Position numbers and translations under genes: made by a program. This document shows, one piece after another, positions 9,908 through 23,715 of a stretch of DNA of 24,000 nucleotides. The DNA is taken from the NCBI GenBank assembly GCA_043777815.1, contig JAYWHH010000004.1, positions 6,492 through 30,491 of the forward strand, read 5' to 3'. Source of the stretch: Rickettsiaceae bacterium. GTDB taxonomy: Bacteria > Pseudomonadota > Alphaproteobacteria > Rickettsiales > Rickettsiaceae. Below the pieces are notes generated by a model. It was not told the DNA's origin and ran no database searches. It was given only the letters and a program-made list of their open reading frames with translations. Position 1 is the first letter of the stretch; the number at the start of each line of letters is the position of its first letter.

Positions 9908-10384
9908 CTAATTAATCTTAACATTTTTGAACAACTTCTGGATAATTTTTCTTTTACTGGTTTCAGAATAATTAGATTTATTTCTAAAGTATTCAATCGC
10001 TAAAAGATAAGCGGTTTCTATAATTCTATCTTTTATTTTGGCTTGTTGGGTTAAGTAATCCGTTTCGACCCTAGATTCTACTTCACTAGAATTTTTAGTC
10101 ATTTCCACTTCCAGAGATTGTAGCTTTTCTTCTCTAATTTTATTCAAGTCATCTGTAATCTGGTCACAAGTTTGTTTAAAGTTAATTTGCATATTTACAA
10201 ATTCCTTCTCCATTTCTTCAAGCTTGAGGCTATATTCATCCAATTTAGATTCTGAAGTGGCAATATCATCAGAAATTTTCTTAGCTTGTATGTCTAAGCT
10301 ATTAACCATTTTTTTATGAGCAAATTTGTAATAACCCATCAGCAATAAAATAAAACCAGATAAAACAATAATTTTGTCTAACAT
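9908..10384 (-). CDS. atpF: F0F1 ATP synthase subunit b
   Basis: One N-terminal TM helix (IIVLSGFILLLMGYYKF) is followed by a long charged coiled-coil (LDIQAKKISDDIATSESKLDEY...). It is the second of two tandem b-type genes. The b versus b' assignment rests only on gene order. Confidence 0.75.
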   Translation of the reverse strand: MLDKIIVLSGFILLLMGYYKFAHKKMVNSLDIQAKKISDDIATSESKLDEYSLKLEEMEKEFVNMQINFKQTCDQITDDLNKIREEKLQSLEVEMTKNSSEVESRVETDYLTQQAKIKDRIIETAYLLAIEYFRNKSNYSETSKRKIIQKLFKNVKIN

Positions 10385-10666: not shown

Positions 10667-10930
10667 TAATTAGGCTGCTTAATCTTAAAGCAATTAATAT
10701 TGATCTTCTAATTAGGCTGCTTAATCTTAAAGCAATTAATATTGATCTTCATTTTATGATATATTCGCACCAAATCTTTTTCGTTAATATCTTCATCATT
10801 TGCCACAGTCTGAATTGAATTCAGCTAATTAGGCTGCTTAGTCTTAAAGCAATTAATATTGATCTTCATTTTATGATATATTCGCACCAAATCTTTTTCG
10901 TTAATATCTTCATCATTTGACACAGTTTGA
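10667..10930. repeat. Triplicated 3' end of the atpF' gene (42-bp partial copy, 105-bp copy, then the functional gene end)
   Basis: taattaggctgctta(a/g)tcttaaagcaattaatattgatcttc starts at 10667, 10709 and 10826. Copies 2 and 3 continue for ~105 bp (attttatgatatattcgcaccaaatctttttcgttaatatcttcatcattt...). A 12-bp spacer (attgaattcagc) precedes the functional copy. Confidence 0.95.
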
Positions 10931-11334
10931 CATATAAGTTTAGAGTAAACTATCATCGATTCTTCTATTTTTTCCTCGCTACTTAAAATATTTAATTCCT
11001 GGCTACGTTCTCCACTCAATTCTTGGTATTTTTTATGTAATTTTTCCTGATATGTTTTTTCTGTTTTTAAAATTTCTTTTTCCAATTCATTAATTTTAGT
11101 ATTTCTATACTCGGAAATCTTTTTTTGATGACTTGAAAGTTCTTGTCCTAAGTGTTTAATTCTATCGGATAGGATAGTTAATTTTTCCCCTCGATTAATT
11201 TCTTTACTGACTCTATTTTGTAGATTTTTTTTGAGAGTTGGGTAAAAATATAATGTGAAAAAACAATAAATTGAAACAAATGCTACCAGAGTCCAAACTA
11301 ATTGGATTATCGAATTATAACTGAAGTCCAACAT
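10825..11334 (-). CDS. F0F1 ATP synthase subunit b' (second b-type subunit)
   Basis: N-terminal TM helix (LVWTLVAFVSIYCFFTLYFY), then the PTLKKNLQNRVSKEI pattern (cf. P.i...L..R...I) and a coiled-coil. It is the first of two b-type genes, as in the alphaproteobacterial order atpB-atpE-b'-b. Confidence 0.72.
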   Translation of the reverse strand: MLDFSYNSIIQLVWTLVAFVSIYCFFTLYFYPTLKKNLQNRVSKEINRGEKLTILSDRIKHLGQELSSHQKKISEYRNTKINELEKEILKTEKTYQEKLHKKYQELSGERSQELNILSSEEKIEESMIVYSKLICQTVSNDEDINEKDLVRIYHKMKININCFKTKQPN

Positions 11335-11482: not shown

Positions 11483-12868
11483 CTACGCATTATGCATAGA
11501 ATTTTCTCCGGATAACTTCAAAGAAAAATCAGTTATACATTCAGTGAATATTGTTAAATCATTTTCTATACCTTCATAAAAATCACACAAATCATCAACG
11601 TTATCAGATGCGTTGAATTTAATAATTTTATCCTTCAAATTCATTTTCATATCACCAACCTTTTTCAATGCATCAAGAAATTCAGTCGTAAAATCTTCAA
11701 TAGAAATTTTATTCTTTTGATTCTCTAATACATCAAGCTTACGCTTTGAGGTTTTTGATAAATTATGTATTAATTTTAAATTATTTACCGTATCTACTTT
11801 TTGCTTTTCGGAGTAATAATATGTGTTGGATGTATATGAGGATCCTTTCAATTGACCTGGACCACATTCTTTATCTTCTTGAATAGTACCTTGTGATACT
11901 GTAAATTTATCTTGATCAAGTTCAGGCGAATGTCTCTTAATAATTTTAATATAGTATTTATAAATTTGTTTTAATCGCTCAATTAAAAGACTATAATCTG
12001 TTTTAATTACGGATCCATTCATTTTATCGTGATCTGAACTTTTATAGTTGATCTCTAAACCATTATGTAATGTCGCAATTATCTGTGTCGCTTTATTTTC
12101 CATGTCGTTTTTATGGGGTTGTCCAGATAAAACAAGATCTGTACCTATTTTAAGCTGCAACTCGCTTTTATTGGGTTTAAAATTTCCAAGTGGAACTTTT
12201 ATAGTCATACAACTCTTTCCTTTGGTTACCAGTTCAGTACTGGTAGCTTCGTTTTTTGTTGTTATGCAAACTCTTTGAGGCGCAGTTTTTGATTTATCAT
12301 TACAAATAAGTGTAAACATTTTTGGTCCCAAATCTTTAGGCAAAATCGCTAGATGTTTTTTTGAACAATCAATATGAGCAGTTGAAATTACATAAGGAAA
12401 AAGAACAAGATCTTTATTATAACTAATCTGATTACAAAAATGAATTTTAATATGTTTATATTTTGCATTACTTAGTAAATCGCACTTATAATCATAATTA
12501 AATCCAATAAAATTTAGGGTTTTCATATCACCTATTTTAACTTCTAAGAAATTGATAGATTGTTTAGGGTTCTCACTATAGCGAATGTCTAATTGTTTCA
12601 AGAAATAATCAGAATTATTTTCTCTCTTATAATGAAATTTGGCGCCTATAAAATTGTTAAAATTTGAGCCTAGCTTTGAAAAAGACCCGAGTTTATCCTC
12701 AGGCGAAAAACTTATTGTAAAATCATATCCTATGCTGGTGCGCAAAATCATTTTTTGTTCTACAACATTGCATCCTATAACATCACCGCTTGTAGTGAAG
12801 TTAGGATAATATTTAGTGTAATTTGTTGGTTTTGACTTGTATGATGAGATTAAATGTAATTGTTTCAT
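11483..12868 (-). CDS. Orphan hypothetical protein (461 aa): Cys-rich, apparently beta-rich N-terminal ~290 aa plus a helical acidic C-terminal region
   Basis: Long intact ORF flanked by 148-bp and 351-bp AT-rich spacers. No signal peptide, TM helix or known motif recognised. The antisense ORF 12048-12278 is a shadow. Confidence 0.55.
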   Translation of the reverse strand: MKQLHLISSYKSKPTNYTKYYPNFTTSGDVIGCNVVEQKMILRTSIGYDFTISFSPEDKLGSFSKLGSNFNNFIGAKFHYKRENNSDYFLKQLDIRYSENPKQSINFLEVKIGDMKTLNFIGFNYDYKCDLLSNAKYKHIKIHFCNQISYNKDLVLFPYVISTAHIDCSKKHLAILPKDLGPKMFTLICNDKSKTAPQRVCITTKNEATSTELVTKGKSCMTIKVPLGNFKPNKSELQLKIGTDLVLSGQPHKNDMENKATQIIATLHNGLEINYKSSDHDKMNGSVIKTDYSLLIERLKQIYKYYIKIIKRHSPELDQDKFTVSQGTIQEDKECGPGQLKGSSYTSNTYYYSEKQKVDTVNNLKLIHNLSKTSKRKLDVLENQKNKISIEDFTTEFLDALKKVGDMKMNLKDKIIKFNASDNVDDLCDFYEGIENDLTIFTECITDFSLKLSGENSMHNA

Positions 12869-13102: not shown

Positions 13103-13321
13103 TTAAAGTTTTTTCCATACCAAGATTCTTTAAAAACGTACTACTTGGTGCATGAATATTTTGGACATAGACAGGTTAAAGCTGTAATAACCTTGAACTT
13201 CTATTTAATAAACACAGAGTTATTTAAAGTTTTTTTCCATACCAAGATTCTTTAAGAACGTACTACTTGGTGCAATGAATATTTTGGACCTGGACAAATT
13301 CATAATGTAATAACCTTGAAC
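13103..13321. repeat. ~120-bp-period tandem duplication of the hflC 3' end, including the stop codon
   Basis: Copy 1 (13103-13198) and copy 2 (13224-13321) share ttaaagttttttccataccaagattctttaa(a/g)aacgtactacttggtgca..tgaatattttggac...gtaataaccttgaac. They differ by scattered substitutions and 1-nt indels. Confidence 0.93.
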
Positions 13322-14074
13322 CTCTCTGTATAGACTATAAAAATCATAATTTTTACCGTAAGCCTCAGATAACATTATCACTGCTTGTTTATCCGCTTCA
13401 GCTTTAATTATTTCGGATTTTTTTTCAGCTTCTGAAAGCAGTATTTGAAATTCTTTATCAGTTGTAGAAGTAATTTCCATAGCAAGCTCATGCCCTTCTG
13501 CTCTAATTTGCATAGATTCTTTAAGTCTTTCTGTTTCCATACGATTATATATGGATATACTATTCTGTTCTGGAAAATCTGCATGCACGATCCTAACATC
13601 CGTAATTTTTATTCCAAAATTTGGAGCATCTTGATTCATTAAATCTTTTATTTGAGTCATTATTGAAGAACGTTTACTCGAAAATAGATCTGTCAATTGA
13701 ATTTTACCAATGATTTGACGCATGGCTGTTTCTAATAAGCGCTCACCAGTGTTTTTATTATTCATTTTTTTATAGAAAATCAAAGGATCTTTGATTTTGA
13801 ATTTACCAAATGCATCTATTAATATTCTTTTTCCATCAGCAGTAGTTAACTCTTTTGAGATAGAATCGATATTTGAAAGACGTTTTTCCATAAAAGAAAC
13901 CGTATCTATAAAAGGTACCTTTAGTTTTAAGCCTGGCTTGTCCAAAATTCTTACCGCTTCTCCAAATTCAAATACGATAGCATATTTGCGTTGGTCTAAG
14001 ATAAAAAAACCGTCCATGATAGTTAGTAATGATATGACGGCTATCGAAATGTATAGATAATATCTATTTTGCAT
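13220..14074 (-). CDS. hflC: Protease modulator HflC (SPFH/band-7 family)
   Basis: N-terminal TM helix, then the SPFH core (YAIVFEFGEAVRILDKPGLKLKVPFID). It lies immediately downstream of hflK with a 13-bp gap. Confidence 0.88.
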   Translation of the reverse strand: MQNRYYLYISIAVISLLTIMDGFFILDQRKYAIVFEFGEAVRILDKPGLKLKVPFIDTVSFMEKRLSNIDSISKELTTADGKRILIDAFGKFKIKDPLIFYKKMNNKNTGERLLETAMRQIIGKIQLTDLFSSKRSSIMTQIKDLMNQDAPNFGIKITDVRIVHADFPEQNSISIYNRMETERLKESMQIRAEGHELAMEITSTTDKEFQILLSEAEKKSEIIKAEADKQAVIMLSEAYGKNYDFYSLYREVQGYYIMNLSRSKIFIAPSSTFLKNLGMEKNFK

Positions 14075-14087
14075 AATCTTTGATATA

Positions 14088-15089
14088 TTAATTATTTTCT
14101 AGTGTTTTGAGAGTAGGTGCATTTAAACTTTTTTCACCATCAGCATAGTAAACATGGTCAGCATCTGTAAATATAATTTCTTTTACATTAGACAACAAAT
14201 AGTCTCTAGCCTCGCTAATCATTTCAAGTTTAATTGCACTTTGCTTTGGTTTATCGCTACTAATAAATCTGTCTAATAGAACATTATATCTGGCAATCTT
14301 TCCTTCTGCTTGCATAATTCTCTTGGCTTTAAAACTTTCAGCTTCTGAAAGTAATTTCTGAGCCTGCCCTCTAGCCTCAGGAATTTTTTTATTTCTGTAA
14401 GCCATAGCTTCGTTAATAAACTTTTCTTTATCAGCTTTAGCTATTTGAACTTCACGATAAGCGCTAATCACTTGGGATGGTGGCTCAGCGGTCAAAAGTT
14501 GAATCATTTCAATTTTTATTCCTAAACCATATCCATCAAGTATATCTTGAGCCAATTGTTTAGTTTGTTCTATTATTCTCTGTTTTCCGTCTGATAAAAT
14601 GGCTTGAGTATTTATCCTAGAAGCTACTTCTCTAAGCGAACTTTCAACTACTGATTTTATCGTAGAATCCGGATTTACTACATTCATTGCATATTTTTCT
14701 AAATCATCTATATAAAACACAACGTCTGCAGTTACGCGAACTATATTCTCATCCCCTGTTACCATAGTACTTTCGAGATGATACTTTTCATTATCTTTAT
14801 TTTCAGAACGATATCCAATTTCAATTCTTCTTGATTTATCTACTGGTATTACTGACACTTTTTCTACAAGAGGAATTGCAAAATTAAGTCCAGAATTACC
14901 CATTCTAACTATTTCACCAAATCTAACAACTATAGACTGTTCGCCCTCTTTAACTTGATATACACCAGAAGACAATACGAATATGCATCCCAATAAAGCA
15001 ATGATGATCAAGATGCTTTTTTGATGCTTGAAGTTAATGCTATTGTTAGAACTACTGTTTGGGCTATCCCAAGGAGATTTAAAATTCAT
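14088..15089 (-). CDS. hflK: Protease modulator HflK (SPFH/band-7 family)
   Basis: SPWDSP N-terminus, TM helix, VYQVKEGEQSIVVRFGE SPFH core, and a coiled-coil region (EARGQAQKLLSEAESFKA). Classical hflK-hflC pair. Confidence 0.88.
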   Translation of the reverse strand: MNFKSPWDSPNSSSNNSINFKHQKSILIIIALLGCIFVLSSGVYQVKEGEQSIVVRFGEIVRMGNSGLNFAIPLVEKVSVIPVDKSRRIEIGYRSENKDNEKYHLESTMVTGDENIVRVTADVVFYIDDLEKYAMNVVNPDSTIKSVVESSLREVASRINTQAILSDGKQRIIEQTKQLAQDILDGYGLGIKIEMIQLLTAEPPSQVISAYREVQIAKADKEKFINEAMAYRNKKIPEARGQAQKLLSEAESFKAKRIMQAEGKIARYNVLLDRFISSDKPKQSAIKLEMISEARDYLLSNVKEIIFTDADHVYYADGEKSLNAPTLKTLENN

Positions 15090-16694: not shown

Positions 16695-18527
16695 ATGAGT
16701 CAAAATAGCAACTATAATACCAAAAATACAAGTGACCTAATCAATGAGCCTGTATTTGAAAATGCGAACTATAGAAAGATATTGTATTTTTTTTTTAAAA
16801 ATCATAAATTAGGCGTAAGTTACTTATTGTTACTAATGTTAATCGGCGGAATTACAAATTCAATTGATAGCATTTTAATTAAAAAAGTTATTGATTTTGT
16901 TGACACAAAGTTTGATGTTAAACCTACTCATTGGTTAGATTGGAATTTAATGATTTGGCCTTTAATTTTTTTTGGGTGGTGGGAATTTTTAAATCTTCTG
17001 TGGAGAGCATATGATATTGTCTACTTGAAGGTAATACCAAAAATTAAGCAAGAAATTATAGAAAAATTGTTTAGTGATATTCAAACTTATCCATATCAAT
17101 ATTTCAAAAATCAAGATAGCAGCTTAATACCCGGAAGAATTATGGAAGCAGCCAGATCATTAGAAATGACCTATGCTATCTTTACTGAACAAATCTTACG
17201 AAAAATTGTTAGTATAATTACAGCTTTATTTGTTATTTATTATATAGATATAAATTTATTTTTAATATTTTTTGCATGGATTGTAATTTTTACTTTAATT
17301 AGTTTTTCAATATCAGCTAAGGCTGAAAATTATTCTAAAACATATAGTAAAAGCAAAGTCAAAATCAATGGATTATTGAGTAATTCTTTACTAAATATAT
17401 TTAACGTCAAAATATTTAATGGAAGAGCTAAAGAAATAGCTTTTTTATCAAAATATACGGATAAGATGAGGGAAAAAGATGAAGTTATGCAAATTTTTAT
17501 GACAAAAGTTAGATATTTGCTAGGTATAAGTTGCAGTATTATGGTGTTGTTTATAATATATTTTACAATTAAATTAAAGTCTGAAAATATATTATCGTTA
17601 GGTGATGTGGCTTTAGTTATTAATATGTGTATTTTTGTTGCTAATGATGTTTGGGAATTGGTGCAAGAAATGAGTGATTATAGTGAAGAATTAGGTGCAT
17701 TTAAACAATCTTGTAATGTTATAAGATCACAAATCGAATTTGAGCAATTTCAATATCCAAATTTATCAAAAAAATCTAAAAATTTTATATTGACCAAGGG
17801 CTCAATTGAATTTAAAAACATATCTTTTGGATATGTAGATCAACAAAAATTATTTATTGATGAATCGATTTTAATTAATGGGGGAGAAAAAATTGCCTTA
17901 GTGGGGTCTTCTGGATCAGGTAAAAGTACATTCGCTAATTTAATTGCCAGAGTTTTTGATATTCAAATGGGCAGTATTTTAATTGATAATCAAAGCATAT
18001 ATGACATATCCATTGAAGATTTAAATAAAAATATTAGCTTTATTGCTCAAGAGCCAATTTTATTTGAAAGAACTATTTTTGACAATATTGCTTATGGGGT
18101 TTTAACTCCTACATTAGAAGAGGTAATAACTGCATCTAAAAAAGCATTTATTCATGAAAAGATTATGTCTTTAAAAGAAAATTACTATTCCAAGTTTGGT
18201 GAAAAAGATATTAATTTTTCTATAGGAGAAAAGCAAAGAGTCATAATAGCTAGGGCTATTTTAAAGAATGCGCCTATCTTAATACTTGACGAAGCAACTA
18301 GTGCTTTAGATAATATTACGGAAAAATTAATCACTAATTCTTTGGATGAATTAATGAAAAATAAAACCTCTATAATCATAGCTCACAGGCTTTATACTCT
18401 AACTAAAGTAGATAAAATCTTAGTGTTTGAAGGAGGCAAAATAGTAGAAAGTGGTAAGCATGAAGATTTGCTAAGTAGGCGTGGTCAATACTATAAATTA
18501 TGGCAGTCTCAATTTGAAATCAAGTAA
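16695..18527 (+). CDS. ABC exporter, fused permease-ATPase half transporter (MsbA/ABCB-like)
   Basis: N-terminal 6-TM-type domain. Walker A GSSGSGKST, Q-loop IAQEP, variant signature FSIGEKQR, Walker B ILILDEATSALD, H-loop IAHRL. Confidence 0.88.
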   Translation: MSQNSNYNTKNTSDLINEPVFENANYRKILYFFFKNHKLGVSYLLLLMLIGGITNSIDSILIKKVIDFVDTKFDVKPTHWLDWNLMIWPLIFFGWWEFLNLLWRAYDIVYLKVIPKIKQEIIEKLFSDIQTYPYQYFKNQDSSLIPGRIMEAARSLEMTYAIFTEQILRKIVSIITALFVIYYIDINLFLIFFAWIVIFTLISFSISAKAENYSKTYSKSKVKINGLLSNSLLNIFNVKIFNGRAKEIAFLSKYTDKMREKDEVMQIFMTKVRYLLGISCSIMVLFIIYFTIKLKSENILSLGDVALVINMCIFVANDVWELVQEMSDYSEELGAFKQSCNVIRSQIEFEQFQYPNLSKKSKNFILTKGSIEFKNISFGYVDQQKLFIDESILINGGEKIALVGSSGSGKSTFANLIARVFDIQMGSILIDNQSIYDISIEDLNKNISFIAQEPILFERTIFDNIAYGVLTPTLEEVITASKKAFIHEKIMSLKENYYSKFGEKDINFSIGEKQRVIIARAILKNAPILILDEATSALDNITEKLITNSLDELMKNKTSIIIAHRLYTLTKVDKILVFEGGKIVESGKHEDLLSRRGQYYKLWQSQFEIK

Positions 18528-18633: not shown

Positions 18634-19860
18634 TTGAAAAACATTACCTTGAAACAGACCTTACGAATACATCAAAAATCTAACATTAAAGTTACGACAC
18701 CTATTTCTGCTTTCAAATTCAAAAAATTTGAACCAGTTACAACGCCTATTTCTGCTTTCAAATTCAAAAAATTTGAGCCAGCCAACGATAATATTCCTGG
18801 TAATATAGTTACTAAGGCATTTGGAAGAGAGGAAAAAGAAGAGGATGACATGATAATAAGTGGCCTATGCTCTCTTTCTATCGTGGACCATCAAAAGCAT
18901 TTAATATTACCTGAAGCATACGAAAAAATCTTTGAGCAATCCTTGGAGAACGTAAAAGTTGTATATAACCACAACTATACTAGTCCACTCTTGGGTCGCA
19001 TTTTAGAGCTTTCTTTGGTTACCATTGATGTGAAGCCACCTAAGCTTTTCGACTCCAATCGTAAGCCCCATAAAACTTATGGACTATATGTAAAAATAAA
19101 ATTTCATAATACTGAAGAGGGCAGATTAACATATAGACAATATAAATCTCAAGCAGTTCCTAGTTTTAGCATAGGCTTTGAGGCTTTAGACTACGATACA
19201 ATTTGTGCTACAAAACTAATAAATGATAAAAAATATAGTCAATATATTCGTACATTTAATGAAAAGACTAGCCCTAATCAAAATGATGTTATTTGGGTAA
19301 TTTCTAATATAAATTTGATAGAAGTCAGTTTAGTTTCAGTGCCCGCTAACTCATATTGCCATACGCTTTCGTATGCAGAGACACTTGATTTATTTAAGCC
19401 TGAAAGTATTGAATATGTAGATGAAAGGAATTTTTGTTACCGTGACCCACAAATAAATAATAATGAGGGTGGAAAACATGGCAATGAAAGAGGGGGGGAA
19501 GGCGATATTCAAACTAGTACGAAGAAAAATAATAACAAAAAAGGGGTCACGGGACTTGAGGGAAAGAAAAACAATGCAGAAAGTAAACCAAAGAATATAG
19601 TAAGAGCTTATTTGGGGGATGAAACTGTTGACGACCTTGGTCACATCAATTCATGCTTAAATGAAAAGGATGGGAAGGATGGGAAGGATGGTACTCAATT
19701 AAATTCACAAGATTTCCAATCATATTGCCAGTCATCAGACAAATTATCAAAGAAGCATTCAACTAAAGCTAAATGTTTTTTATTTTCTAAATTATTTCCC
19801 AAGCTTCATAAATTAAATCAAAAATTAAATCAAAAAATATATGGATCAAAATTCAAATAA
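18634..19860 (+). CDS. HK97-family phage prohead serine protease with a ~160-aa low-complexity C-terminal extension
   Basis: Core blocks: IISGLCSLSIVDHQKHLILPEAY, VKVVYNHNYTSPLLGRI (candidate catalytic His), GLYVKIKF, VPSFSIGFEAL (candidate catalytic Ser), NLIEVSLVSVPANS. The TTG start at 18634 is doubtful. The ATG at 18850 (MIISG...), preceded by the purine-rich gaagaggatgac, gives a canonical N-terminus. Confidence 0.75.
   Translation: MKNITLKQTLRIHQKSNIKVTTPISAFKFKKFEPVTTPISAFKFKKFEPANDNIPGNIVTKAFGREEKEEDDMIISGLCSLSIVDHQKHLILPEAYEKIFEQSLENVKVVYNHNYTSPLLGRILELSLVTIDVKPPKLFDSNRKPHKTYGLYVKIKFHNTEEGRLTYRQYKSQAVPSFSIGFEALDYDTICATKLINDKKYSQYIRTFNEKTSPNQNDVIWVISNINLIEVSLVSVPANSYCHTLSYAETLDLFKPESIEYVDERNFCYRDPQINNNEGGKHGNERGGEGDIQTSTKKNNNKKGVTGLEGKKNNAESKPKNIVRAYLGDETVDDLGHINSCLNEKDGKDGKDGTQLNSQDFQSYCQSSDKLSKKHSTKAKCFLFSKLFPKLHKLNQKLNQKIYGSKFK
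18691..18780. repeat. 45-bp x2 tandem duplication (3 mismatches); in frame if the TTG start is used (TTPISAFKFKKFEP x2)
   Basis: 18691-18735 (gttacgacacctatttctgctttcaaattcaaaaaatttgaacca) versus 18736-18780 (gttacaacgcctatttctgctttcaaattcaaaaaatttgagcca). Confidence 0.95.
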
Positions 19861-21166
19861 CACAGATATAAATGAGATCTTGTCAATTTTAAGTGACATA
19901 CTCGATGAAAAAGATGACAAGGATAAAGATATAGAAAAAAATAAAATCTCTAATAAGGAAAATGTAACTGAAGAAAATACAACTAAACAACCAGGTGAAT
20001 ATACTTATAAAAATATGAACTCAAACAAAAAAAATGAATTGATGGATTCAAATTTCCATAATACTGTTAATATAAATAGCAAAAATGAATTGATGGTACA
20101 CAAAGGTCAATTTAGCGCCCCAGCTAAAACTAATATGATTAATTTAGGAGACGGTTTTTTTACTAAATCTACCGAAGATCTTTTGGTTTCTAGCGCACAT
20201 TGGTCCCATAAACCTCATAAATCTTATTTAGAAAATACGCATCATCAGAGTTTATTAAACTACTTTGATACAATAAAGTCTAATAATCCAATAGAAGTCA
20301 TTGACTCTAGCAAAGTTAAAGTTTCTATCAAGACTTCTGATAATCCAGTTATGATTGCCATTAATAATGGCAACAATGTTTCAATTGATGAAATTAATCC
20401 TATAAAATTAGCTTCAGTGTTTCTTAGTGTCGCTGTCACTTGCATTGATACTATTACAGAAGATTTGGTAGAAATAGTCACTAAAAAAATGAAAGATGAA
20501 ACGGAGGATTTTATTACAGAGCAAATTTTTACTAGAGGTAAACCTAATCCTAAGCAAATAAAATCTATCTTTAATTTAATGGAAGAGACAGATGTTCAAA
20601 TCAACGCGGAAATTGGAAAAAGTGCAAATGAAAAGAAAAAACTCAGTTTAAAAAATGATCTATCGATTGTCAGTATAAAAAAATATGGAACAAATGGGGA
20701 GAGTAAATTGGGTGATGTGGACATGATTAGTTTATTACACGCGATCAATTCTACTCTTTTACATTCTATAAACTCTGGACAATACAAGAATTTATATTGT
20801 TTTATGTCTCAAAGCGTATATAGCGCCTTAGTAAGTAGTTCAATAAAAGTTTTTTCCGATTCAGACAAAGAAGCAGGAGATGATGAAGATAGTGGTGTTA
20901 AATCATTTTTTAGTCATTTATGCAAACATCAAATACCCATACTCAAGGGTATGCAAATAGTTTTGGTAAACAATTTGGAGTTAGAAACTGATGAATCAAC
21001 GCATAAGATTTTTATAGGAGATCCAAAATCTTTTAAAATATTCAGCAATGATTTCAAAATTTCTAGGAATCATCAATGTAATGCGGATGTTTTTTATGTA
21101 GATTGTAAGATATCTACATTTTTGGCAAATAAAAACTTTAAATGTTTAACTTTACTTAAAAATTAA
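19841..21166 (+). CDS. HK97-fold phage major capsid protein (highly divergent) with a charged N-terminal delta/scaffold-like region
   Basis: It immediately follows the protease, overlapping it by 20 nt. By eye it is colinear with HK97 gp5 blocks, e.g. IKLASVFLSVAVTCIDTITEDLVEIVTKKMKDETEDFITEQIFTRG (cf. [45 protein letters not shown]) and DMISLLHAINS (cf. DIIAHAIYQV). The N-terminal ~90 aa are Asp/Lys/Asn-rich. Confidence 0.6.
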   Translation: MDQNSNNTDINEILSILSDILDEKDDKDKDIEKNKISNKENVTEENTTKQPGEYTYKNMNSNKKNELMDSNFHNTVNINSKNELMVHKGQFSAPAKTNMINLGDGFFTKSTEDLLVSSAHWSHKPHKSYLENTHHQSLLNYFDTIKSNNPIEVIDSSKVKVSIKTSDNPVMIAINNGNNVSIDEINPIKLASVFLSVAVTCIDTITEDLVEIVTKKMKDETEDFITEQIFTRGKPNPKQIKSIFNLMEETDVQINAEIGKSANEKKKLSLKNDLSIVSIKKYGTNGESKLGDVDMISLLHAINSTLLHSINSGQYKNLYCFMSQSVYSALVSSSIKVFSDSDKEAGDDEDSGVKSFFSHLCKHQIPILKGMQIVLVNNLELETDESTHKIFIGDPKSFKIFSNDFKISRNHQCNADVFYVDCKISTFLANKNFKCLTLLKN

Positions 21167-21231
21167 GAACACGTTAAGCAAAGAGTGGGAACTGTAAAGG
21201 GCCCGTAAAAAAATAATTAATTAATATTTAT

Positions 21232-21912
21232 ATGACTTATAAACAAATTCTAACCGAGAGCATAATCAATATAATTGATGAATCGATCGTTAATGTAATC
21301 AGCAGCGAGTTTTACAAATTCATTTATCCCAATCCTGATATTGCAAATATAAATATTAAATTAGTTTCAGATTCCAAAACTAATTTTCGAAGTTTGGTTA
21401 TAGAAGATGAAAAAGAAGAAAAAGATCAGCAATCGTCTTTAGCTAAAAAAGATGCTAAAGATGCCATAGATCTTGAAATGTTTATTATGTTATACGATTA
21501 TGCTAATACAATTTTGTTTTATTTAAATACTAAACTTGGTATCCCATTGATGTATAAAAATATTAAATGCACTTTACCTCCAATCACCAGAAAGTCAAAG
21601 TACAGAATAGAATTGCCGTTTTATCTCTCTCCAAATATATCAATAAAATCAGATACTTTGTTTATAGAAATTATTAGCAATAATAATTGTAGAAATGTTT
21701 TTTCTAATTTAATATCAATAGAAGTTATTAAAGACATTGACTCACCTCATCAATTTGAAATACATGATACAAATATCATGTATAGATTGATGTCAGGAGC
21801 TATAAAAAAGCATATGATGCATCTTCTAGGAAAGTCCAAAGAGTCTAAGGAATCTCTCGAAAATATTTATGAAATGTATATACCGAGATTTAACATTATT
21901 GATGAATTTTGA
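21232..21912 (+). CDS. Hypothetical protein; candidate gp6-like head-tail connector/adaptor (about twice the usual size)
   Basis: It occupies the position after the capsid gene. DLEMFIMLYDYANTILFYLNTKLGIPLMYKNIKCTL...RIELPFYLSPNISIKS resembles the connector pattern (d..li..li.aA...ie..tg..l..qt....i.LP..Pv.sv.sv). The assignment is by eye only. Confidence 0.35.
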   Translation: MTYKQILTESIINIIDESIVNVISSEFYKFIYPNPDIANINIKLVSDSKTNFRSLVIEDEKEEKDQQSSLAKKDAKDAIDLEMFIMLYDYANTILFYLNTKLGIPLMYKNIKCTLPPITRKSKYRIELPFYLSPNISIKSDTLFIEIISNNNCRNVFSNLISIEVIKDIDSPHQFEIHDTNIMYRLMSGAIKKHMMHLLGKSKESKESLENIYEMYIPRFNIIDEF

Positions 21913-21923
21913 TTTTATAAAAT

Positions 21924-22418
21924 ATGAATTTATTAGACAAAATAACACTTCTACATTTAAAGTGTAAATATGATGATATTTTTAACGTAAGCTTTCTTGA
22001 TTTGATTAAAAAGAACGCCACTAGTTTATTGACGACTAGATGTGATTTTAGAGAGTATCAAATCAGGATAGTTAATCCTAACTCCAAGTTAAAAGATAAT
22101 GGTTTAGTTTATCAGCGTTGCGGGGTTTTCGATATGATGTATCATCACAAAATATTAGAATTCCAGCCCTCTATTGATATATTGAAAGATATATTGAAGA
22201 ATGATATGGGAAATAGTGAAAAGAAGAAGGATGATTCATCTAATGCTTTAATTTCAAGCACAAATAAACCAGAGCAAAATAAAAATGTTCATGATGATAA
22301 GGATTTTTACCATGATTGTATAATAATTTTATTTAGCAAAAAGGTGTATTATGCAAATACAATTTTATCGAAGAATATTGAAAGATTAATTCAGATAACT
22401 GGCATAGAAATTATTTAG
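21924..22418 (+). CDS. Hypothetical protein; candidate head-tail joining/head-closure protein
   Basis: It is the fourth gene of the head module. The N-terminal MNLLDKITLL and C-terminal ...KVYYANTILSKNIERLIQITGIEI loosely match the head-tail-joining family pattern (M..G.L..rI.i ... y.I..v......l.l.c.e). It has a central Lys/Asp/Asn-rich insertion. Confidence 0.3.
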   Translation: MNLLDKITLLHLKCKYDDIFNVSFLDLIKKNATSLLTTRCDFREYQIRIVNPNSKLKDNGLVYQRCGVFDMMYHHKILEFQPSIDILKDILKNDMGNSEKKKDDSSNALISSTNKPEQNKNVHDDKDFYHDCIIILFSKKVYYANTILSKNIERLIQITGIEII

Positions 22419-22432
22419 GTTCTAAAGTATTG

Positions 22433-22490
22433 TTTACTATACCTTGAATGGAAAAGCATAATTTACTATACCTTGGATGGAAAAGCGTAA
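22433..22490. repeat. 29-bp x2 tandem repeat in the spacer after the head module
   Basis: tttactataccttgaatggaaaagcataa (22433-22461) versus tttactataccttggatggaaaagcgtaa (22462-22490); 2 mismatches. Confidence 0.93.
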
Positions 22491-22650
22491 TAACTAAAAT
22501 ATTTTAAATTCAATCTAACGTAATAAAATCGATTTTAATCAACCCTTATAAAATACACTAACTTCAATGTTAGAATAATGTATTCACATATTTTATATTT
22601 TTATGAATTTATCAGCTTTAGAAGAAATAAAATTTTACAAGGAGCTTTGT

Positions 22651-23304
22651 ATGCAAAATAACAATTTCACTTTAGAAAAATTGCAATATACTGCAATTGA
22701 TTCGTTTATTTCTGCAGAAACTTTAGAATATCATCATGGCAAACATCATCAAGGATATTTAAACAATTTAAATAAATTAAAAGATACTTTCAATCAAGCG
22801 ACAAATGATTCTCAAAAAAATCATTTCATACATGATTTTTATTTAAAATCTTTAAAAGGTTTAGAGAGATTTAAAGATCTAGAAGTGGCCAAAATATGCC
22901 AAGAGGTATACAATAATAGTGCGCAATGTTTAAATCATTCTTTTTATTGGCAATCTATTAGCTCGGTCGCGATGACTCCTAGTGCAAAAGTTTTGAATCA
23001 TTTTGTCAATTATGAGGATTTTGTAGATAAATTTTTAGCAAAATCATCTCACTTTGGATCAAGTTGGGCATGGCTAGTATGCGATAAGGATTTTCGAGTA
23101 TTTTTTCATTCTACATCTAATGCTTCTAATCCCTTAGAATTAAATTTATTCCCGCTTTTAGTTTGTGACATTTGGGAACATGCTTATTATGTTGATTACC
23201 GAAATCAGCGTCTTGAATATATGAAAAAGTTTTTAAATGTTATCAATTGGAATTTTGTAGAGACGAACTTAGACTCGGCTAAGAAATTCTTTAACGCTGT
23301 GTAG
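22651..23304 (+). CDS. sodB: Iron-type superoxide dismutase
   Basis: LEYHHGKHHQGYLNNLN, NNSAQCLNHSFYW (Fe-type AQxxNHxFxW) and the DIWEHAYYVDYRNQR metal-ligand block. The ATG at 22651 has an AAGGAG Shine-Dalgarno sequence 6 nt upstream, so the ORF-track start at 22603 is probably too early. About 19 extra residues lie between the NLN and NNSAQ blocks relative to E. coli SodB. Confidence 0.9.
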   Translation: MQNNNFTLEKLQYTAIDSFISAETLEYHHGKHHQGYLNNLNKLKDTFNQATNDSQKNHFIHDFYLKSLKGLERFKDLEVAKICQEVYNNSAQCLNHSFYWQSISSVAMTPSAKVLNHFVNYEDFVDKFLAKSSHFGSSWAWLVCDKDFRVFFHSTSNASNPLELNLFPLLVCDIWEHAYYVDYRNQRLEYMKKFLNVINWNFVETNLDSAKKFFNAV

Positions 23305-23402: not shown

Positions 23403-23475
23403 GCACCCGTAGCTTAATGGATAGAGCATATGACTACGGATCATAAGGTTAGGGGTTCAAGTCCTCTCGGGTGTG
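23403..23475 (+). tRNA. tRNA-Arg (anticodon ACG); CCA not encoded
   Basis: Folded by hand into a 73-nt cloverleaf. Acceptor GCACCCG/CGGGTGT has a G1-U72 wobble. D stem is GCTT/GAGC, anticodon stem TATGA/TCATA with loop CTACGGA, a 5-nt variable loop, and T arm AGGGG-TTCAAGT-CCTCT. Discriminator is G. Confidence 0.92.
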
Positions 23476-23597
23476 ATTTTACTATTTTAGTAAATTTGTA
23501 TCAGGTGTTTATGTTTTAAATTACCTAGATACAGTTTTAACTTTTCATTAAATCAATTATTTTTTTAGCAATTTCTACGAATTTTTAGTTAAAAAAC

Positions 23598-23626
23598 TTG
23601 ATTTTTTGCAAAAAAAGTACTAATAT
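23598..23626 (+). promoter_or_regulatory. Putative sigma70-type promoter for tRNA-Ile
   Basis: TTGATT (23598-23603), a 17-nt spacer, then TAATAT (23621-23626). The tRNA 5' end is 12 nt downstream. Confidence 0.4.
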
Positions 23627-23638
23627 TTCTATGTATGT

Positions 23639-23715
23639 AGGCTCGTAGCTCAGGTGGTTAGAGCGCATGTCTGATAAGCATGAGGTCGGTGGTTCAACTC
23701 CACCCGGGCCTACCA
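23639..23715 (+). tRNA. tRNA-Ile (anticodon GAT); 3' CCA encoded
   Basis: 77 nt. Acceptor is AGGCTCG/CGGGCCT, anticodon stem CATGT/GCATG with loop CTGATAA, T arm GGTGG-TTCAACT-CCACC, discriminator A, then CCA. It is nearly identical in layout to E. coli tRNA-Ile1 (AGGCTTGTAGCTCAGGTGGTTAGAGCGC...). Confidence 0.95.

Follow-up and report, generated by a model that had tools for sequence, protein, structure and literature searches.

The window analyzed here (24,000 nt of DNA from a Rickettsiaceae bacterium) carries at positions 18634–22418 a module of four open reading frames (ORFs): an HK97-type (S78) prohead maturation protease (ORF1), a 441-aa orphan ORF that overlaps it, and two smaller orphans (ORF3 and ORF4). 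With moderate confidence, we interpret this module as a long-resident, vertically inherited remnant of the head module of an HK97-type phage or gene transfer agent (GTA), comprising the protease and a diverged capsid protein, carried by an AT-rich bacterium with the appearance of a reduced-genome symbiont. The protease is recognizable by family profiles and by its conserved His and Ser blocks, and the gene directly downstream, which in the nearest phages encodes the major capsid protein, belongs to the same family in three diverged lineages. Re-reading of the sequence returned the coordinates of the initial annotation for all four ORFs, which lie on the same strand; the principal features of the module are as follows.

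18634..19860, + strand: prohead maturation protease of HK97 type (S78); 408 aa when read from the TTG at 18634 (PF04586, phrog_80, TIGR01543)
18690..18779, + strand: 45-bp tandem duplication, two copies, 93% identical, doubling 15 aa (VTTPISAFKFKKFEP) in the protease N-terminus
19441..19860, + strand: C-terminal extension of the protease ORF, ~140 aa, basic, low-complexity, with the conserved motif NIVRAYLGDETV (three-homologue alignment)
19841..21166, + strand: 441-aa orphan ORF, candidate major capsid protein and protease substrate (from gene context; the fold is a candidate only)
20084..20107, + strand: motif NELMVHKG, aa 82–89 of the 441-aa protein, at the boundary of low-complexity N-terminus and core (alignment of three lineages)
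21232..21912, + strand: ORF3, 226 aa, orphan, candidate module member (no family match)
21924..22418, + strand: ORF4, 164 aa, orphan, candidate module member (no family match)

The prohead protease

ORF1 matches the Pfam family Peptidase_S78 (PF04586; 43.4 bits, cut-off 21, E 5e-11), the PHROGs family "head maturation protease" (phrog_80; 3.6e-16) and the HK97 proheadase model TIGR01543 (1.7e-10, 41.2 bits), the last under its equivalog cut-off of 59; judged by these scores, ORF1 is a member of the S78 family and no close equivalog of the HK97 enzyme. The protease domain covers ~aa 60–265, and the TTG at 18649 is a likelier start than that at 18634, giving a 403-aa product ("MKQ...") that agrees with the homologues. 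The conserved His block (VVYNH113NY) and Ser block (SFS179IGF) singled out in the initial annotation are present: in a BLASTP alignment with HK97 gp4, VVYNH113 falls on FFNH65 and SFS179IGF on GMS114VGF, and H113 and S179 thereby align to H65 and S114, the catalytic His and Ser of gp4. The codons for His113 and Ser179 lie at 18970–18972 and 19168–19170, respectively, and a third conserved block, EVSLVSVPAN, comes after them. Both residues are invariant in an alignment of the three protease homologues.

Relatives of this protease are few. Only two were found among 5.8 billion proteins (P0002 and P0003, from Logan assemblies), each with 44% identity, and the nearest phage proteases, those of Marinomonas phage P12026, the T5-like Vibrio phage VCPH, and Streptomyces phage Wakanda, are ~25% identical. 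Scans of genome, metagenome, and viral collections with exact peptide patterns from the protease alignment, which detect near-identical relatives only, found no close relatives, and the same pattern scans with the neighboring ABC exporter as query gave only 25–57% identical matches in unrelated taxa.

Beyond the protease domain, the ~140-aa C-terminal extension may be, by analogy with other head systems, a scaffold or capsid-targeting segment. At the other end of the protein, the 15-aa unit VTTPISAFKFKKFEP that is doubled in the window is present as a single copy in P0002 and P0003. Several independent assemblies of the same organism (L048–L050) begin inside the 5' part of the protease gene, which suggests that the 45-bp repeat there disrupts assembly.

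The 441-aa partner

Three homologous protease genes were available (in the window and in loci L002 and L003), and each is followed by the next ORF at a distance of −20 to +67 nt, the window having the 20-nt overlap originally noted. In L002, a homologue of the 441-aa ORF (26% identity, E 1e-12, z = 11) lies directly 3' of the protease, and an ABC exporter (67% identical) precedes the protease as in the window, so the order exporter–protease–partner is kept there. In L003 (1–2587), the more distant relative, the protease and its partner ORF come after a yciB-like gene and secE, with no ABC exporter at that place; as far as gene order can tell, either the pair would have moved as a unit, or the flanks were rearranged while the coupling was kept.

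The partner ORFs have a common layout of an N-terminal amphipathic helix, a long acidic low-complexity stretch, and the motif NEL.[VIF][HY]K[GS]; the L003 partner has its N-terminal motif in common with the 441-aa ORF. In the 441-aa protein the N-terminal part is ~85 aa, acidic, and of low complexity, with a conserved amphipathic helix (INEILSILSDIL), and a conserved core comes after it. At the boundary between the two parts, residues E83, L84, and K88 of NELMVHKG are invariant in all three lineages (NELNIYKS in L002, EELNFHKG in L003). The low-complexity N-terminal part also contains an imperfect 39-nt repeat (20007–20096; 74% identical) that doubles "N(K/S)KNELM", a motif that includes residues conserved across the three lineages.

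With a stop expectation of ~8% per codon at 29% GC, a frame of 441 codons would stay open by chance with a probability of ~1e-16, and the retention of such long frames at 29% GC in three lineages implies that coding capacity is under selection. Seven contigs contain the identical 441-aa product, and at least four samples are represented among the listed occurrences, which rules out an assembly artifact as the source of the locus. In P12026, VCPH, and Wakanda, the gene annotated as the major capsid protein comes next after that for the protease (437, 462, and 335 aa, respectively), and in HK97 the capsid gene is likewise directly 3' of the protease. Because the partner is always 3' of the protease in three lineages, and because the capsid gene occupies that place in the nearest phages, the 441-aa ORF probably encodes a major capsid protein.

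Nonsynonymous divergence (dN) between the window and L002 is 0.23 for the ABC ATPase domain, 0.35–0.44 for the protease, and ~0.8 for the 441-aa ORF; by this measure the partner evolves fast and is still alignable. The initial annotation had argued for long residence under selection rather than a recently dead prophage, and long vertical residence is upheld because the protease–partner pair is intact in three diverged lineages. Composition agrees with this: the GC content, GC at third codon positions, and synonymous-codon likelihood of the four ORFs all lie inside the range of 19 flanking genes, and the host-like character reported earlier is thus borne out.

A mechanism can be outlined under the interpretation of the module as a diverged head remnant. 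The 441-aa partner would be a major capsid protein diverged beyond sequence recognition, with its acidic N-terminal segment in the role of a scaffold-like (delta-like) domain. After co-assembly into the procapsid, possibly via its ~140-aa C-terminal extension, the protease would remove the N-terminal segment of the 441-aa protein, perhaps at the conserved HK|G, leading to shell maturation. HK97 gp5 is cleaved after K103 (K103|S104 maturation site), and a conserved Lys with Gly or Ser after it, where N-terminal segment and core meet, recalls this site; NELMVHKG is, by this analogy, a possible maturation cleavage site.

ORF3 and ORF4

ORF3 and ORF4 have no matches in Pfam, NCBIfam, PHROGs, or PDB. 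Profiles of the gp6-like and gp7-like families were built from P12026-family proteins, with 200 shuffled sequences as background. ORF3 scored 1.4 bits with the gp6-like profile (control HK97 gp6, 16.0) and ORF4 scored −0.2 bits with the gp7-like profile (control HK97 gp7, 41.7), both inside the shuffle range, so that the resemblance to gp6-like connector and gp7 head–tail-joining proteins proposed at first is not supported. The sole adaptor hint is an "IELPF" in ORF3 that aligns with "eieLPy" of the gp6-like family. An AlphaFold2 model of ORF3 reached a predicted local distance difference test (pLDDT) score of 42.5, and Foldseek on that model gave no meaningful match. Both ORFs may encode head-completion proteins or be plain host orphans. 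The two have a 19-nt stretch in common (21497–21515 and 22348–22366; 18/19 identical), encoding "DYANTILF" and "YYANTILS", which could be chance or the trace of a partial duplication.

Observations that weigh against a capsid module

Several results weigh against the interpretation of this module as a diverged head remnant, among them the failure of the 441-aa protein to match any known capsid. Even at E <= 10, neither the 441-aa ORF nor its homologues match a Pfam, NCBIfam, or PHROGs family, and PDB chain sequences (E <= 10) gave no match to the single protein or to a three-sequence profile; those chains include the solved HK97, RcGTA, and encapsulin shells. A tblastn search of 50,697 phage records (E <= 10) and an exhaustive phmmer search of 1.84 billion representatives found no matches to the ORF, nor did a word-indexed search of 5.8 billion proteins. 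The 90%-identity cluster of the protein is represented by a 48-aa fragment; therefore the word-indexed search returned no self-match, and the full-length protein is hidden from representative-based searches.

Direct comparison with capsids was equally negative. The initial annotation described the 441-aa protein as colinear with HK97 gp5, a likeness for which we find no statistical support. BLASTP against gp5 aligned only non-colinear, scattered scraps. Three custom capsid profiles were made from viral contigs (HK97/P12026, T5-like VCPH, and Wakanda-like); the 441-aa ORF scored −0.6 bits with the HK97/P12026 profile in hmmsearch --max (control HK97 gp5, 360 bits), reached 0.04–0.3% probability in hhalign with the three capsid families, and gave z-scores of −0.8 to 1.5 in semi-global alignments with capsids. 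Profile hidden Markov models thus bear out the initial annotation for the protease, which passes the Pfam cut-off, and leave its capsid, gp6-like, and gp7-like families unmatched. AlphaFold2, run on the single sequence without an alignment, produced a model of the 441-aa ORF with a pLDDT of 31.5 and a predicted template modeling score of 0.21, in which no fold is readable, and Foldseek output from this model was meaningless.

These negatives carry little weight, however, because the same tests miss true capsid pairs of different families: hhalign gave 1.1% for HK97 vs. Wakanda and 1.7% for VCPH vs. Wakanda, and true cross-family pairs reached z ~1.6 in semi-global alignment, compared with z = 11 for the window and L002 ORFs. 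The negatives are compatible with extreme divergence and with non-homology alike, and tests on sequence of this kind cannot tell which.

Other points on the same side concern the locus and its host. Many ORFs of the region lack a family match (8 of 10 unassigned ORFs scanned nearby stayed without one), so an orphan beside the protease is in itself unremarkable. The ~50 kb of genome examined contains no signal of a portal, terminase, or tail gene. Synonymous sites are saturated between the window and L002 or L003 (proportion of synonymous differences 0.67–0.77), and the dN/dS ratio (nonsynonymous to synonymous divergence) is accordingly uninformative. Finally, the sequence hints by themselves point only weakly to an alphaproteobacterial host.

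The locus and its flanks

A 67-kb metagenome contig (ENA ERZ27314333, k141_1727052) contains the window. The region has 26–33% GC and closely packed housekeeping genes (ubiH, adk, frr, grx4, hflKC, iscS, sodB, and others). The module is bounded by two host genes:

16695..18527, + strand: ABC exporter, fused permease and ATPase, host gene, upstream flank (domain matches; equivalent 5' of the protease in L002, 67% identity)
22603..23304, + strand: Fe/Mn superoxide dismutase (sodB), host gene, downstream flank (Sod_Fe_N, Sod_Fe_C)

The neighbors are as first described: the exporter, with ABC_membrane and ABC_tran domains, ends at 18527, 106 bp 5' of the module; an Fe superoxide dismutase gene lies downstream; and tRNA-Arg and tRNA-Ile genes follow ~1 kb from the module, beyond sodB. 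Between ORF4 and sodB, the 184-bp spacer contains a 29-bp tandem repeat in two copies (22424–22481; 86–93% identical), which may be a regulatory or promoter-region repeat.

The phage parts reported as missing were not found either. Terminase, portal, tail, and lysis genes were undetectable in ~50 kb around the locus, relaxed thresholds included, and neither att-like repeats nor an integrase were found flanking or near the module. Two large orphans, at 11483–12868 (− strand, 461 aa) in the window and at 13264–14742 (492 aa) in L045, have no Pfam or PHROG match, and smaller orphans occur nearby; neither the 461-aa nor the 492-aa ORF showed any sign of being an overlooked portal or terminase.

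Alternative interpretations

The most serious alternative, which we nevertheless regard as unlikely, is a dispersed, functional GTA, in which portal, terminase, and perhaps neck and tail genes are encoded at other loci and DNA-packaging particles are made. Precedents exist in the scattered GTA clusters of Sneabacter and other Rickettsiaceae, and in Holosporaceae with a large terminase gene off the main cluster (PMC9254644), and the sequence inspected here amounts to only ~50 kb of the genome. Against it, the portal gene normally travels with protease and capsid genes in the described endosymbionts and does not adjoin them here, the surrounding 50 kb holds nothing phage-like even at relaxed thresholds, and adaptor or head-closure signals are missing from ORF3 and ORF4.

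Somewhat more doubtful is the survival of the protease by itself, either exapted for a host function or in the course of being lost, with the 441-aa ORF, ORF3, and ORF4 as unrelated lineage-specific orphans. The absence of capsid, adaptor, or closure signals from these three ORFs is in line with such an origin, as are the frequency of orphan ORFs on this contig and the rate of the 441-aa ORF, which is ~3.5 times that of the neighboring ABC ATPase domain. The negatives are weak, however, since the controls fail too (hhalign 1–2% probability, z ~1.6), and the protease is coupled to the same downstream gene family in three lineages, in L003 in a different context. Moreover, we know of no substrate of S78 proteases besides procapsid components, which we count against a protease that persists without a capsid.

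A shell with neither portal nor tail that its own protease matures and that serves as a storage or cargo compartment with no transfer of DNA, the second role suggested in the initial annotation, seems to us improbable. No portal, terminase, or tail gene is detectable nearby, which would fit; there is, however, no positive evidence for it. A cargo-like gene or targeting peptide was not identified (the targeting peptide by inspection only), there is no encapsulin-family match in Pfam (E <= 1–10) or in PDB sequences (E <= 10), and the absence of a portal cannot be demonstrated from 50 kb. To our knowledge, encapsulins do not use S78 proteases, and encapsulin systems are without a prohead protease. 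George et al. considered that reduced GTAs might form a shell of this kind (PMC9254644). We give similarly little credence to a stronger version, in which the 441-aa protein would found a new, extremely diverged HK97-fold family and, with an S78 protease and no portal or terminase genome-wide, would form a matured DNA-free shell with a non-transfer function (compartment, storage, or host interaction).

A prophage of recent acquisition now in decay, or a fragment of a capsid-forming satellite similar to capsid-forming phage-inducible chromosomal islands (cf-PICIs), which encode heads without tails, would explain a head-only gene set of protease and then putative capsid, yet is hardly credible: integrase, att repeat, terminase, and portal are absent, codon usage and GC content are those of the host, and the locus and its left flank are kept in a relative in which the ABC exporter is only 67% identical. 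A defense-system reading was also rejected; the PADLOC matches of the module ORFs (E 0.003–0.07) are noise.

Features of the host genome

Several observations bear on the host rather than on the module. Two adjacent ORFs on the − strand (9908–10384 and 10825–11334) have weak, sub-cut-off matches to ATP synthase subunit b (PF00430); a b/b' pair of this subunit is typical of Alphaproteobacteria. UbiH matches NCBIfam PRK06617 under the cut-off, a weak pointer to the same class. The tRNA-Ile(GAU) gene stands beside tRNA-Arg (23403–23715), between sodB and a NifU-like gene and away from the 23S locus; in another assembly of the same organism, the 23S–5S rRNA locus (L045 17791–21068) lies ~16 kb upstream of the window start. 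The separation of tRNA-Ile from 23S–5S, another weak pointer to Alphaproteobacteria, is compatible with an unlinked rRNA operon, with only 180 nt 5' of the 23S gene covered; unlinked rRNA operons are a Rickettsiales-like trait. The public gene call for the NifU-like protein (L047 13827–14849, 340 aa) begins inside tRNA-Ile (13799–13872), and its start is probably placed too early. Housekeeping proteins contain low-complexity insertions, such as the (TN)n run of UbiH in L045, and the whole genome appears to be evolving very fast.

Comparison with known systems

Small GTA clusters in Rickettsiales were reportedly noted by Lang and Beatty in 2007. They were also noted by Shakya et al. in 2017 (PMC5721377), and George et al. 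(2022) reported that Rickettsiales and Holosporaceae commonly have GTA head or capsid–portal genes without tails and that these genes are expressed and evolve under purifying selection, while transmission electron microscopy of >850 cells revealed no particles (PMC9254644). Both continued DNA transfer by a dispersed GTA and repurposing, including as an encapsulin-like storage shell, were discussed in that study (PMC9254644). The suggestion that a tail-less capsid system of this sort was undescribed for symbionts is therefore incorrect, as tail-less head clusters and the idea of a storage shell had already been published (PMC9254644); because the phenomenon and both functional hypotheses are in the literature, no new category is opened by the present module.

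The small RcGTA-like clusters of endosymbionts resemble the module in having HK97-family head genes (protease, capsid, and adaptor-like or unknown ORFs, in that order) amid housekeeping genes in AT-rich reduced genomes, with no tail genes or prophage features and with genes intact over long divergence (PMC9254644, PMC5721377). They differ in that DELTA-BLAST and HMMs could still detect their capsid and portal genes, whereas only the protease is recognizable here, and in their ybgF flank, compared with an ABC exporter flank and no adjoining portal in the window.

With HK97 gp4/gp5, the module has in common an S78 protease with equivalents of H65 and S114, followed by (here overlapping) an ORF of ~400 aa; like the region of the gp5 delta domain, the N-terminal ~85–100 aa of the 441-aa protein differ in character from the rest. 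Unlike in HK97, no similarity to gp5 can be detected in the 441-aa ORF, the module offers no identifiable portal, terminase, gp6, or gp7, and the protease carries the ~140-aa extension that gp4 lacks. Wakanda gp22/gp23, a protease–scaffold fusion and a capsid protein without a delta domain, offers a parallel for that extension: its protease (445 aa vs. 408 aa) also consists of an N-terminal S78 domain and a C-terminal extension, and its capsid gene (335 aa) is directly 3'. The identity is ~24% and confined to the protease domain, however, and the Wakanda capsid protein has no similarity to the 441-aa ORF.

Encapsulin nanocompartments, as HK97-fold shells without portal or tail, are a functional analogy for a storage or cargo shell, from which the module differs in lacking both a family match and a cargo gene at its locus (the neighbors being the ABC exporter and sodB).

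The module would also illustrate a limit of annotation, in that capsid genes can drift past every profile while the protease remains recognizable; a protease gene can therefore mark the place of capsid genes that would otherwise stay hidden. Should the 441-aa protein prove to be a capsid protein, the module would be the most stripped-down and most diverged head-only phage or GTA remnant of reduced endosymbionts so far, and an extreme case for asking what role is played by shells without tails and perhaps without portals.

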